Below, in pieces: positions 30,514-34,307 of a stretch of 64,000 bases of DNA. The notes under the pieces are model-generated. The model searched no databases. It had not been told where the DNA came from and saw only the letters and a program-made list of their open reading frames with translations. This DNA is from Nitrospira sp. (GTDB lineage Bacteria > Nitrospirota > Nitrospiria > Nitrospirales > Nitrospiraceae): contig VGXG01000007.1 in the NCBI GenBank assembly GCA_016873395.1, forward strand, positions 159 to 64,158, read 5' to 3'. Within the stretch, counting starts at the first letter, position 1. The number at the start of each line of letters is the position of its first letter. Made by a program: the position numbers and the translations under genes.

Positions 30514-33030
30514 ATGAGCATTTCCCGGACTACCCACCCACTCGAGATACAGACGAGGCCGATTCCAAGGGACATCATCGAGGAAATCGAGACCTTCGAG
30601 GGCGAGGCGCAACGGCTGCTCGCCGGCGATGTCTCCAGCGACCTCTTCAAGCCGTTCCGCCTGCAGCATGGGATCTACGGCCAGCGCCAGCCCGGAGTCC
30701 AGATGGTGCGGATCAAGATTCCGTTCGGCGGGCTCACGGCCAACCAGTTGCGGCGCATCGCCGAACTGGCCGACCGTTACACCACGGGCGTCGGTCACGT
30801 CACCACGCGCCAGGACATCCAGCTCCATTTCGCGCTGCTCAAGGATGTGGGGACGATCATGCGGGGGTTGGCCGAGGTGGGTCTCACCACGCGCGAGGCT
30901 TGCGCCAACACGGTACGGAACGTGACCGCCTGCCACCTGGCGGGGGTCTGCCAGGGCGAAGTCTTCGACGTGACGCCCTATGCCAAGACGGTCGCCCTGC
31001 ACTTGCTTCGCAATCCGCTCAATCAAAGCCTGCCGCGGAAGTTCAAGATCGCCTTCTCCGGCTGCCGCCACGACTGTGCCCTGACCCCGATTCACGACAT
31101 CGGGCTCCTGGCGGCCAAGCGGGAGGACGGAACGATCGGCTTCCGGATGGCCGTGGGCGGAGGACTCGGCTCGGCTCCCCGCATCGCCCAGGTCCTGCGG
31201 GAGTTCGTCCCGATGGATGAACTCCTCCCGACGATCGAGGCCGTAATCAAAGTCTTCGACACCCTCGGCAACCGGAAGAACCGCAACAAGGCCCGGATGA
31301 AATTCGTGATCGAGAAACTGGGGTTCGACGAATTCAAGCGGTGTTGGGAGGAGGCCTACGTGAGCATGGGCCATGCCCGACCCAACCATGCGCCGATCCG
31401 ATTGCTCCAGCATCAGGATGAGCCGGTCTCCCTCATCATGCCGACATCGGGATTGGCCGGCGCTGCCGGCGGTGGGAACGGAGACGGCTCATCCGCGGGA
31501 GCTGCCGGAAACGGCCAGGCCTCACCCGAGACTCCCTATCAGATGTGGAAGCGGACCAATGTCGTACCGCAGAAACAGCCTGGGTACGTCGCGGCGGTCA
31601 TCAAGCTTCAGATGGGAGACATGACGGCGGAGCAGATGTGCGGCATCGCCGATCTGGCGGAGGCCTACTCGAACGGCAATCTGAGGACCACCATCAACCA
31701 GAACGTGATCATCCGGTGGGTACCGGAGTCTCGCCTGGAAGAGTTCTACCGCGAGCTGGTTCCCCAGGGCCTCGCCGATCCGGGCGCCGAGCTGGTCGAG
31801 GACATCATCGCCTGCCCCGGCACGGATACCTGTGGGCTGGGCATCACGTCTTCAAAGGGGCTGGCGCGGGCCATGGCGGAGATCTTCCCGCCCGGGCGGG
31901 TGCCGGCGGATCTCAAGGATGTCAGCGTGAAAATCAGCGGTTGTCACAATTCCTGCGCCCAGCACCACATCGCGACAATCGGCCTGCACGGAGTCGGCAA
32001 GCGCATCGGGGACCATGTAGCGCCCCACTACGAGCTGCACCTGGGGGGCCAGGTGAACGGCACGGCCAAGATCGGCCAGATGACCGTGAAGCTGCCGTCC
32101 AAGAACGTGCCGGCGGCGGTCTCGCACCTGCTCACAGTCTATCGCCGCGACCGGCGGGTGGGCGAAACCCTCCCCTCGTTCATCACCAGGGCTGGCAAGG
32201 CCAAGCTCAAGGAAGAGCTGATCCCCTACACGATCGTGCCGACCTTCGAGGAGGACGCCACCTATTACTATGACTGGGAAGGCGAGGAAGAGTTCATTCT
32301 GGAAGACCTCGGCCCGGGCGAATGCGCAGGCGGGGCCCTGGAGATGATCGGCGACCGTATTCTGGAGGCGGAACAGGAACTGTACCAGGCCAAGCTGTTG
32401 GCGGAGAAACATCAGTATTCGGTGGCCGTGAACAAGGCTTACCGTTCGGTCCTGGCCGCCGCCAAGGCCCTGCTGGTCACCGAAGGACTCGACCCGGCGA
32501 CGGATGCGGAAACCTTTACTGAGTTCGAGCGGCGCCTGGCGGAGAAGGGCTATGTGCCGGCTTCCTATCGCAACCTGGGCTCGCAGATCGGCGACTTGGG
32601 CCCGAAGCAGACGACGCCGGAGTTTGCCCTGGCCAAGATCGCCTTTGCCCGCGGCTTTGTGGAAGCCTGCAAGGCAGCCACGGAGCAGATCGGAAAGGAC
32701 CTCAAGCTGAGCCAGGCGGGGACGACGGAAGGGACTGTGCAGAAGCCCACGCCCCAGCCGGTACCGGCCAAGGCTCAACCGGCTACCGAAGCGGCGGCCC
32801 CGGTCTATGATCTACGCGGCGTGGCCTGCCCTCTGAACTACGTGAAGACCAAGTTAAAGCTGGAAATGATGGACGCAGGCGAGCGGTTGGAGGTCTGGCT
32901 GGACGCGGGCGAGCCGATTAGGAACGTCCCGATGAGCCTGCGCAACGACGGCCACAAGATCCTGGCGGAAGAGCCCTTGGAGCCGGAGGCAGCGCATTTC
33001 AAAGTCCTGGTCGAGAAGGTCGAGGGCTAG
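30514..33030 (+). CDS. sir: ferredoxin-type assimilatory sulfite reductase fused to a helical linker domain and a C-terminal TusA/SirA-like domain
   Basis: 838 aa. Two NIR_SIR halves with siroheme/4Fe-4S Cys motifs (ACPGTDTCGLG; SGCHNSCAQHH). A Gly/Ala-rich insert (LAGAAGGGNGDGSSAGAAGNG). Residues from about 600 to 740 are all-helical. The C-terminal VYDLRGVACPLNYVKTKLKLEMMDAGERLEVWLD is TusA-like. Confidence 0.85.
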   Translation: MSISRTTHPLEIQTRPIPRDIIEEIETFEGEAQRLLAGDVSSDLFKPFRLQHGIYGQRQPGVQMVRIKIPFGGLTANQLRRIAELADRYTTGVGHVTTRQDIQLHFALLKDVGTIMRGLAEVGLTTREACANTVRNVTACHLAGVCQGEVFDVTPYAKTVALHLLRNPLNQSLPRKFKIAFSGCRHDCALTPIHDIGLLAAKREDGTIGFRMAVGGGLGSAPRIAQVLREFVPMDELLPTIEAVIKVFDTLGNRKNRNKARMKFVIEKLGFDEFKRCWEEAYVSMGHARPNHAPIRLLQHQDEPVSLIMPTSGLAGAAGGGNGDGSSAGAAGNGQASPETPYQMWKRTNVVPQKQPGYVAAVIKLQMGDMTAEQMCGIADLAEAYSNGNLRTTINQNVIIRWVPESRLEEFYRELVPQGLADPGAELVEDIIACPGTDTCGLGITSSKGLARAMAEIFPPGRVPADLKDVSVKISGCHNSCAQHHIATIGLHGVGKRIGDHVAPHYELHLGGQVNGTAKIGQMTVKLPSKNVPAAVSHLLTVYRRDRRVGETLPSFITRAGKAKLKEELIPYTIVPTFEEDATYYYDWEGEEEFILEDLGPGECAGGALEMIGDRILEAEQELYQAKLLAEKHQYSVAVNKAYRSVLAAAKALLVTEGLDPATDAETFTEFERRLAEKGYVPASYRNLGSQIGDLGPKQTTPEFALAKIAFARGFVEACKAATEQIGKDLKLSQAGTTEGTVQKPTPQPVPAKAQPATEAAAPVYDLRGVACPLNYVKTKLKLEMMDAGERLEVWLDAGEPIRNVPMSLRNDGHKILAEEPLEPEAAHFKVLVEKVEG

Positions 33031-33057
33031 GGGCAAGCGGCAAGGGGCTATAAGGGT
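33031..33057. repeat. single-arm heptad array (GGCAAG word)
   Basis: GGGCAAG CGGCAAG GGGCTAT AAGGGTT immediately after the sir stop. No opposing arm. Confidence 0.5.
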
Positions 33058-33069
33058 TGCAGATACGCG

Positions 33070-33789
33070 ATGAAAGACACTCAAACAGCAAGCCGGCCGT
33101 TGGACGAGGAATTGAAGGCGCTGAGCGACTCCTTCGAGTCCAAGCAGCCGCAAGAACTCTTAACCTATGCGCTGGAGCGCTACGCCTCCAGCATCATCCT
33201 GGCTTGCAGCTTCGGGGCGGAGGATGTGGCGCTGGTGGACATGATCTACCGGATCAATCCGCAGATCCCGCTCTTTTACCTGGACACGGATTTTCTCTTC
33301 AAGGAAACGCATGCGGTGAAAGACCGCATCGTGGCCACGTACGGGCTTTCCCCCGGCCAGGTGATCCAGGTCAAATCGCTGCTCACGCCGGAGCAGCAAG
33401 CTGCCCAGTATGGCGAGGCGCTCTGGGGCCGGCAGCCGGACCAGTGTTGCCAGTTGCGGAAGGTCGAGCCCCTGACCCGCATCCTCAGCGGCTATAACGC
33501 CTGGATCACCGGCATCCGGCGGGACCAGGCGCCGACCCGCGCGAACGCAGGTTTGGTGGAGTGGGACAAGAAATTCCAACTGGTCAAGTTCAACCCCCTG
33601 GCCCGCTGGAGCGCGACGGAGGTGTGGACCTATATCCGGCTGCACGAGGTCCCATACAACGAACTTCACGACCGAGGCTACCCCAGCATCGGCTGTACCC
33701 ACTGCACGGCGCCGGTCAAGCCCGGCGAGGACCCCCGGTCCGGCCGTTGGCAAAACTTTGCAAAGACCGAGTGCGGGCTGCATAAGTAG
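33070..33789 (+). CDS. cysH: adenylylsulfate (APS) reductase, thioredoxin-dependent, Fe-S type
   Basis: PAPS_reduct fold. The Cys pairs CCQLRKVEPL and SIGCTHCT are diagnostic of Fe-S APS reductases rather than E. coli-type PAPS reductase. C-terminal ECGLH. Confidence 0.88.
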   Translation: MKDTQTASRPLDEELKALSDSFESKQPQELLTYALERYASSIILACSFGAEDVALVDMIYRINPQIPLFYLDTDFLFKETHAVKDRIVATYGLSPGQVIQVKSLLTPEQQAAQYGEALWGRQPDQCCQLRKVEPLTRILSGYNAWITGIRRDQAPTRANAGLVEWDKKFQLVKFNPLARWSATEVWTYIRLHEVPYNELHDRGYPSIGCTHCTAPVKPGEDPRSGRWQNFAKTECGLHK

Positions 33790-33793
33790 AGCG

Positions 33794-33882
33794 TTCATCG
33801 TCACTCGTCATTCGTCACTCGTGTGGAAAGGTCTGAGACGCCCCTGTCCCGAATGACGGATGACGCATGACGAATGACGAAC
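33794..33882. repeat. heptad-periodic inverted-arm element (word GTCAC/GTCAT / ATGAC)
   Basis: TCATCG TCACTCG TCATTCG TCACTCG | 27-nt loop | GAATGAC GGATGAC GCATGAC GAATGAC. The right arm overlaps the tracked ATG (33867) of the next ORF. Confidence 0.8.
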
Positions 33883-34307
33883 CCAGGGGGAAAGTGAAGA
33901 AGCTGGCCGTGATCGTGACGCGGGGGTCGTACAACAATCTGCTTCAGGCCTGCGAACTCGTCCGCATCGCTGCCGCGGCCGGGACGCAGGTGAGCGTACT
34001 GTTCCGGGATGAGGCAGCGGCCAAACTGACCAACGAGAAGGTGAAGGACCTGACGTTTTCCGAGGCCTACAAGGGTCGGGAGTCCAAAGTCCGGGATATG
34101 CTACGCGGACGCAAACGAGATCATCTGCCCACGATCCTGCGAGAGATCAAGGAAGCTGGCGACGTGAAGTTTTCCATCTGCCGCGACTCGCTTGAGTATT
34201 TCGAACTGACCGTCGAGCAGTTGCTTCCCGAGCTGGACGAAGTGCAGAAGGCCGAAGCCTTCTGGAAGGAAGAGATGGCGCAAGCGGACCAGGTGCTGAC
34301 TTTCTGA
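33867..34307 (+). CDS. DsrE/DsrF-like sulfur-relay family protein
   Basis: KKLAVIVTRGSYNNLLQACELVRIAAAAGTQVSVLFRDEAA...KFSICRDSLEYF. DsrE-like fold pattern with one conserved-looking Cys. The true start may be GTG 33894 because 33867 lies inside the repeat arm. Confidence 0.6.
   Translation: MTNDEPRGKVKKLAVIVTRGSYNNLLQACELVRIAAAAGTQVSVLFRDEAAAKLTNEKVKDLTFSEAYKGRESKVRDMLRGRKRDHLPTILREIKEAGDVKFSICRDSLEYFELTVEQLLPELDEVQKAEAFWKEEMAQADQVLTF

Follow-up and report, generated by a model that had tools for sequence, protein, structure and literature searches.

A widespread fusion of assimilatory sulfite reductase with HEPN-fold and TusA domains in a Nitrospira sulfate-assimilation operon, and its possible part in sulfur carrier loading

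Thiocarboxylate routes are established for the synthesis of cysteine in Mycobacterium tuberculosis and of methionine in Wolinella succinogenes (HcyS/HcyF/HcyD/MetY; PMC6225789). In the gene neighbourhoods described by Iyer, Burroughs and Aravind in 2006 (PMC1779556), ThiS/MoaD, JAB and E1 genes are combined with sulfate-assimilation genes, sulfite reductase among them; as set out there, the E1 never carries a rhodanese domain, a SirA (TusA) protein invariably accompanies it, and a rhodanese-like role was predicted for the latter. The subject of the present analysis is a 64,000-nucleotide stretch of Nitrospira sp. DNA (contig VGXG01000007.1 of assembly GCA_016873395.1, hereafter the window), in which a sulfite reductase (Sir), a HEPN-fold domain and a TusA domain form a single polypeptide of 838 amino acids, encoded at 30514-33030 on the plus strand, to which all window coordinates below refer. 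The system of this genome shares with row 4e of the 2006 paper a sulfite reductase, TusA/SirA, a rhodanese-less E1, a ThiS-like carrier with a residue beyond Gly-Gly, a JAMM protease and a pyridoxal-phosphate (PLP) sulfhydrylase. At about half of the loci sampled here, the 2006 set adjoins the fused Sir; it is also complete within this genome, but its carrier, E1 and JAB genes lie on a contig separate from that of the sir operon. The neighbourhood descriptions of PMC1779556 give SirA as a component and do not state a fusion to Sir. The Wolinella pathway, with its own Sir, is an example of this set; the clients in this genome are CysM-like and ThrC-like enzymes, not MetY.

M. tuberculosis offers a second comparison. 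Its ferredoxin-dependent NirA/SirA (PDB 1zj8) has the same pseudo-twofold core and the same ligand cysteines as the fused Sir, and this bacterium also makes cysteine via a thiocarboxylate carrier (CysO-CysM-MoeZ-Mec). NirA, however, lacks the HEPN-TusA tail as well as an additional set of cysteines found in the N-terminal half of the Nitrospira protein. The mycobacterial E1, MoeZ, bears its own rhodanese domain. A rhodanese-bearing MoeZ with a tail-less NirA is thus the complementary arrangement to a fused Sir with a rhodanese-less E1.

The HEPN part of the fusion also has a likely antecedent. Table 1 of Anantharaman et al. (2013; PMC3710099) lists a HEPN-T family (Cpin_6617) without the Rx4-6H motif, fused to "a dyad of ferredoxin domains" and found in Bacteroidetes and Nitrospirae. 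This wording suits the fusion family, in view of its paired NIR_SIR_ferr half-domains and of its phyla, and the HEPN domain of the window likewise belongs to the HEPN-T/PF05168 clade and has no Rx4-6H motif, the two being likened by description only. Sulfite reductase, TusA and the invariant cysteine are unmentioned in that table. Current NCBI and JGI labels of family members read "sulfurtransferase TusA family protein", "HEPN domain-containing protein" or "sulfite reductase (ferredoxin)". The fusion is real but widespread and already catalogued, both architecture and predicted role having been published and entered in database annotation; what is new locally is only the subclade-specific insertion of a DsrE-like gene.

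From the N- to the C-terminus, the protein comprises a siroheme/[4Fe-4S] Sir core, a HEPN-fold domain, a Pro/Ala linker and a TusA domain. Pfam recognizes NIR_SIR (202.5 bits) and NIR_SIR_ferr (133.2 bits) in two stretches each, HEPN (PF05168) at residues 615-663 (26.8 bits, cut-off 22) and TusA (PF01206) at residues 765-835 (55.8 bits, cut-off 28.6). A first-pass annotation, made from the sequence, had proposed a complete ferredoxin-type sulfite reductase followed by a helical module, possibly HEPN, a Pro/Ala linker and a C-terminal TusA domain, and had suggested a domain search and a structure prediction of the C-terminal region. Every part of this architecture was recovered, NIR_SIR together with HEPN, TusA and, in a downstream gene, DsrE, the last three scoring above their cut-offs; the two motifs it had quoted, ILEAEQELYQAKLLAEKHQY and DLRGVACPLNYVKTK, are both found in the protein. 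The full-length AlphaFold2 model has a predicted local distance difference test (pLDDT) score of 83.6 and a predicted template-modelling score (pTM) of 0.71, with low confidence confined to residues 306-335, 601-603 (a hinge) and 737-759 (the linker). An alignment of 82 family sequences, 29-95% identical to the window protein, delimits what is conserved. Six cysteines are invariant in the family: Cys434, Cys440, Cys477 and Cys481 of the Sir core, Cys604 at the hinge and Cys772 of TusA. In the tail, the invariant residues are D587, E603, C604, G769, C772, P773, N775, V777, K780, V805, P806 and S808.

The Sir core has the build of a NirA/SirA-type assimilatory sulfite reductase. Its C-terminal half carries the CX5C...CX3C set of canonical [4Fe-4S]/siroheme ligands, Cys434, Cys440, Cys477 and Cys481 (31813-31956), invariant in 55/55 and 82/82 family members, and its N-terminal half the basic residues R99, R135, K176 and K178, invariant in the 82-sequence alignment. 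The best Foldseek match of the full model is M. tuberculosis NirA (1zj8, E 1.7e-30, TMt 0.79), followed by plant nitrite reductase (NiR), maize Sir and E. coli SiRHP, with TMt values of 0.7-0.8 against 1zj8, 5h8v and 1aop; the likeness to DsrA/B is distant (E ~1e-6). The N-terminal half harbors an extra CX5C...CX3C set, Cys140, Cys146, Cys184 and Cys188 (ACHLAGVC...GCRHDC, 30931-31077), which aligns, by the internal repeat, with the cluster ligands of the NirA C-terminal half. It is kept in about half of the fusion family and is absent from plant NiRs as from the mycobacterial enzyme. Because the matching substrate-binding lysines are missing from the C-terminal half, this set may bind only an additional [4Fe-4S] cluster. 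Cys130 (30901-30903) corresponds, in the alignment with M. tuberculosis NirA, to the "TEAC" cysteine, the partner in a Tyr-Cys cross-link beside the siroheme. All family members keep Tyr55, but most of those outside Nitrospira have Gly in place of Cys130. To note, the two Sir halves are separated by a low-complexity Gly/Ala/Ser/Asn insert (residues 306-335, 31429-31518, pLDDT <50), alignable within close relatives only.

The tail begins with a Glu603-Cys604 hinge (32320-32325) in the motif G-x-G-E-C-x-x-G, invariant in three alignments and located directly before the first HEPN helix. Since pLDDT falls below 50 at residues 601-603, the hinge loop is probably flexible. It leads into a HEPN-fold helical domain (approximately residues 608-724, 32335-32685). 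A separate model of residues 583-738 (pLDDT 86.5) retrieves HEPN structures as its top Foldseek matches: 2hsb (E 2.2e-4, TMt 0.79), 1wol, 1ufb, 1o3u and sacsin 3o10. The full-length model matches 2hsb as well. The Rx4-6H ribonuclease (RNase) motif was not found in this domain, nor any conserved Arg or His among 67 sequences, in which only D587, E603 and C604 are invariant. An active RNase or toxin is therefore rejected: the domain keeps the HEPN fold and, to judge from its residues, is a catalytically dead four-helix bundle. A flexible Pro/Ala/Gln-rich linker (32686-32799; pLDDT <50 at residues 737-759), variable in length and sequence, connects it to the TusA domain (32800-33027). The latter exhibits the beta-alpha-beta-alpha-beta-beta order in its model and matches E. 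coli TusA (3lvj_C, TMt 0.84) as well as the YeeE-YeeD fusions 8j4c and 8k1r. Its motif is CPxN[YF]V and not the canonical CPxP: the cysteine and the first proline are invariant (Cys772-Pro773-x-Asn775), while the second proline is replaced by an invariant Asn, a signature that marks a distinct TusA subfamily at the sequence level. As read from these alignments, both tail cysteines, Cys604 and Cys772, are under absolute constraint.

The fusion is found far beyond Nitrospira. More than 1000 proteins display the same Pfam architecture, with a tail identity of 71-94%, and it is encoded in complete genomes too, those of Nitrospira moscoviensis and Ca. N. bockiana. A search with the tail only, against 1.84 billion representatives at 50% identity, returned 363 clusters at E <1e-10, many of them 740-900 amino acids long and matched at their C-terminus; the named members belong to Nitrospirota, Nitrospinota, Chrysiogenetes and Poribacteria. 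A homolog search with the Sir core covered close Nitrospira relatives only. The pattern CPxN[YF]V[KR][TAV]K[LI], scanned against a set with a single genome for each species, gave at least 599 confirmed matches, which places the HEPN-TusA tail in at least 599 species and more than 20 phyla, nearly always joined to a Sir core. The best 79 loci of these matches were retained as a sample of neighbourhoods, taken around the fused Sir only. They come from Planctomycetota, Verrucomicrobiota/Kiritimatiellia, Bacteroidales (including Prevotella), Clostridia, Chloroflexota, Omnitrophota, Elusimicrobiota, Fibrobacterota, Spirochaetota, Desulfobacterales and others, and essentially all complete open reading frames (ORFs) with the tail are 730-960 amino acids long and contain the Sir cysteine motifs. 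The single unfused case among them is a 360-residue HEPN-TusA ORF of a Myxococcales metagenome-assembled genome (MAG; locus L069, 5587-6666), with no Sir core detected in the 5.6 kb upstream. In a Marinamargulisbacteria MAG (L059, 4326-10940), the fused Sir is present in two tandem copies, the first of which runs 320 amino acids past the TusA motif. The first-pass annotation had called for a survey of the fusion and had envisaged that it could be an artefact of assembly or frameshift, with two genes separated by a stop in relatives. The survey finds it widespread, and intact in complete genomes and distant phyla; an artefact is rejected, and so is, given the 363 clusters and more than 20 phyla, an invention specific to Nitrospira.

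The genes that accompany the fusion in other phyla point to a ThiS-like carrier system as the better-supported partner of the tail, ahead of DsrE. Unsupervised clustering of all ORFs around the 79 loci identified as the largest family, after Sir itself, a CysK/CysM-type PLP enzyme (44 loci), often with a ThiS-like domain in frame or immediately before it. ThiF/MoeB-type E1 proteins, sometimes with an N-terminal MoaD-like domain, follow (37 loci), together with CysH (30), two families of siroheme-synthesis genes (21 and 15), CysN (19) and Rrf2 regulators (17). A targeted search of the same loci, using the proteins of this genome as queries, found E1 at 41, JAB at 35, and ThiS and CysM at 33 each. 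The usual gene order is ThiS, E1, JAB, Sir-HEPN-TusA. In a Kiritimatiellia MAG (L033, 3915-6714) and a Desulfobacterales MAG (L037, 3804-6702), a JAMM/JAB domain is even fused in frame to the N-terminus of Sir-HEPN-TusA, the products being 933 and 966 amino acids long, respectively, from stop to stop. All ten E1 proteins sampled consist of a ThiF domain only, without rhodanese.

The same components are found in the Nitrospira genome itself. On contig C9 (29000-41000, taken as locus L107), a gene run at locus positions 4050-9512 encodes a ThiS-like protein, a CysM-like enzyme, a ThiF E1, a ThrC-like PLP enzyme, a MoaD-like protein, a NIL-domain protein, a second ThiF E1 and a Prok-JAB protease, that is, a complete thiocarboxylate set of carrier, E1, JAMM protease and PLP sulfhydrylase. 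Among the genes of this genome, the CysM-like one alone gives a strong match to cysteine synthase. The ThiS-like and MoaD-like carriers both end in Gly-Gly-Arg (GGGR and AGGR) and hence need C-terminal trimming, as is reportedly also the case for Wolinella HcyS-Ala. This arrangement points to two thiocarboxylate routes running in parallel, the first leading to cysteine and the other probably to homocysteine. Taken together with the fused Sir, the C9 genes indicate that the organism combines a thiocarboxylate pathway lacking rhodanese with a Sir that brings its own TusA.

From this comparison, we favor, at somewhat better than even chances, a role of the tail in relaying sulfur derived from Sir to E1-activated ubiquitin-like carriers, forming thiocarboxylates for the synthesis of cysteine. 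The tail would act as a built-in sulfurtransferase, substituting for the rhodanese domain that the E1 enzymes of the pathway lack. As the six-electron reduction of sulfite yields sulfide, the formation of a persulfide requires an oxidized acceptor, such as a disulfide. A disulfide between Cys604 and Cys772 would be opened by the HS- made at the siroheme, leaving TusA persulfidated and the other cysteine as a free thiol; tethered TusA would then bring the persulfide to the adenylated ThiS/MoaD-like carrier bound by a ThiF-type E1, where it would attack the acyl-adenylate. The second cysteine, as a free thiol, would resolve the resulting acyl-persulfide, releasing the carrier thiocarboxylate and restoring the disulfide. 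Such a cycle would be redox-neutral and use both invariant cysteines. Downstream, the CysM-like and ThrC-like PLP enzymes would use the thiocarboxylate to form cysteine and, probably, homocysteine, while the JAMM protease would trim and recycle the carrier. By analogy only, the system recalls DsrAB-DsrC, in which a siroheme sulfite reductase likewise works with a partner possessing two conserved cysteines on flexible elements. DsrC differs from the tail in being a separate protein of another fold and in serving energy metabolism, where it forms a trisulfide with the partly reduced sulfur that it accepts; that a two-cysteine relay in the tail would be the assimilatory counterpart of the DsrAB-DsrC principle is a tentative proposal.

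Several observations weigh against a relay to the carriers. Besides the location of the carrier, E1 and JAB set on another contig in this genome, these genes are unlinked to the sir operon in the sampled Nitrospirales (linked in 0 of 7 loci) and likewise in several further clades, Bacteroidales and Nitrospinota among them. It is thus from about half of the loci that the association derives, in counts taken around the fused Sir only. Literature searches on the fusion (sulfite reductase, TusA, HEPN, Nitrospira) gave no experimental study. Finally, the reconstitution of the Wolinella pathway is said to have credited free bisulfide for thiocarboxylate formation, in which case a protein relay may not be required. 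The first-pass annotation had put forward that the product sulfur is handed on bound to protein rather than released as free sulfide: this part fits the comparative genomics and the earlier published predictions, while its proposed DsrE partner does not find support.

Other explanations concern either the substrate or the tail. That the protein is chiefly an assimilatory nitrite reductase (NirA) could be argued from its best PDB sequence matches, which are plant nitrite reductases (E 2.8e-55), from its top NCBIfam match, "NirA family protein", and from its being the only NIR_SIR gene, and so the sole siroheme sulfite/nitrite reductase, in a genome of nitrite-oxidizer type. All NCBIfam equivalog scores, however, are far below their cut-offs, and it is the gene context that speaks for the substrate: the gene belongs to a cysH-cysD-cysNC operon downstream of a CymR-like regulator, and its relatives accompany sulfate-assimilation and sulfur-carrier genes. 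M. tuberculosis "NirA", the enzyme closest in structure, is itself a sulfite reductase. We regard a nitrite reductase as very improbable here. A tail without any role in sulfur transfer, with HEPN serving dimerization or docking and TusA being a redox-sensing or regulatory appendage, is hardly more probable. HEPN domains do commonly dimerize, the one considered here has no catalytic residues, and a persulfide on the fused Sir is deduced from sequence and gene context; yet the strict invariance of both cysteines and of CPxN down to approximately 30% identity is hard to reconcile with a tail devoid of thiol chemistry, and the neighbouring genes point toward sulfur carriers. The tail might instead act on the substrate side, TusA binding thiosulfate or a sulfo group in the manner of YeeD/TsuB and delivering sulfite to the siroheme, or the Cys604/Cys772 pair reductively freeing sulfite from the S-sulfocysteine of CysH. 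YeeD, a TusA-family protein, is described as binding thiosulfate via its conserved cysteine and releasing sulfite and sulfide (PMC13047784), and both the Foldseek link to the YeeE-YeeD fusions and the adjacency of cysH at 28 of the 79 loci would agree with this. But cysH is expected next to any Sir, no YeeE-type transporter gene appears among the frequent neighbour clusters of the 79 loci, and the ThiS/E1/JAB neighbours, the in-frame JAB fusions and the rhodanese-less E1 would be left unexplained, which makes a substrate-side role improbable, if less so than the two preceding alternatives.

The proposal of the first-pass annotation was that TusA and a DsrE-like protein encoded two genes downstream form a persulfide relay, from Sir via TusA and DsrE to unspecified acceptors. 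The gene is there as described (33867-34307): the second one 3' of sir, 77 nt past cysH, it encodes a DrsE_2-like member of the DsrE family (PF02635, 35 bits, cut-off 22.7; PF13686, 25.3 bits, cut-off 25) containing the motif KFSICRDS. Translation probably begins at a GTG (33894) preceded by an AGGGGG ribosome-binding site, and nearly all orthologs are called at 137 amino acids. The protein resembles PDB 2qs7 (E 7.6e-6), with Cys105 aligned to a 2qs7 cysteine; Cys29 and Cys105 are invariant in ten orthologs, and the position between cysH and a trpD-like gene is kept in 9/9 ortholog-bearing relatives. Sulfur transfer between DsrE and TusA is, moreover, established in sulfur oxidizers (PMC10839748). 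Against these points, orthologs (>=56% identity) occur in only about 40 of 201 Nitrospiraceae genomes, covering roughly half of 39 genera, and the four most heavily sampled genera of this draw possess just a paralog of ~24% identity. All 392 detectable homologs with names are Nitrospirota, and a single one of the 79 fusion loci, that of a close relative, has the gene, profile search included. Scores for the DsrE2 (18 versus 210 bits) and TusC (17 versus 94 bits) equivalogs of NCBIfam lie far below the cut-offs, so that orthology to the characterized DsrE2, DsrE3 or TusC/D sulfur carriers was not found. Being limited to Nitrospirota, the DsrE-like gene does not account for the fusion, which more than 20 phyla conserve without it, invariant cysteine pair included. 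DsrE as a universal partner of the fused Sir is rejected, and a functional TusA-DsrE relay is unlikely, although less so than the alternatives above.

The DsrE-like gene is nevertheless a genuine member of the operon, a lineage-specific accessory of one Nitrospiraceae subclade, and its product may provide an additional relay or buffer step, not a general partner. A more elaborate version of the relay to the ubiquitin-like carriers, which we regard as speculative, would include it: Cys604, its flexible hinge lying at the reductase mouth, and Cys772 of the tethered TusA would cycle between disulfide and persulfide, no free sulfide would leave the enzyme, the E1-activated carriers would be loaded directly, and in that subclade a third step, of relay or storage, would fall to the DsrE-like protein. 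The genome also has a classical dsrE-tusA pairing away from this operon: a weak match to the DsrE family (contig C82, 106-653; 19.9 bits, under the Pfam cut-off) lies directly 5' of a stand-alone TusA gene. A third TusA is encoded on contig C31 (18612-18818).

The operon that contains sir consists of seven co-directional genes on the plus strand (29979-38285), separated by 30-176 nt, in the order Rrf2, sir, cysH, dsrE-like, trpD-like, cysD and cysNC. The first gene (29979-30431) encodes an Rrf2-family regulator of CymR/IscR type (Pfam Rrf2, 110.2 bits), over the cut-off of the NCBIfam rrf2_super model and, with 99 bits, under that of CymR. CysH (33070-33789; PAPS_reduct, 172.5 bits; NF002537, 265 bits) is of the adenosine 5'-phosphosulfate (APS) reductase type, its CC...CxxC and ECGLH motifs being those of Fe-S APS reductases. 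The trpD-like gene (34338-35402) encodes a glycosyltransferase-family-3 protein (Glycos_transf_3, 150 bits; TIGR01245, 225.6 bits); it is found at the same place in all seven Nitrospirales loci of the 79-locus sample and at none of the sampled loci from other phyla. CysD, the small subunit of sulfate adenylyltransferase (35461-36264; PAPS_reduct, 133.8 bits), is followed by CysN fused to an APS-kinase-like domain (36441-38285; GTP_EFTU, 156.7 bits; APS_kinase, 63.8 bits). This cys context recurs across phyla, CysD homologs being found at 29 of the 79 loci, a number close to that of CysH. Beyond the operon, an Fe-S carrier ATPase of the Mrp/NBP35 (NUBPL) type (38552-39469; PF10609, 251 bits) is possibly the last member of the cluster and may be a candidate for loading Fe-S clusters onto Sir or CysH; a PCP_red-repeat protein follows it (the two spanning 38552-40329).

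The point of interest in the fused Sir is its invariant Glu-Cys hinge. If the tail does relay sulfur to the carriers, many uncultured bacteria, and the nitrite oxidizer Nitrospira with them, would do without a pool of free sulfide, which is toxic and oxygen-sensitive, when assimilating sulfate; this would matter for the synthesis of cysteine in aerobic chemolithotrophs, and TusA would gain a defined role in primary sulfur assimilation.

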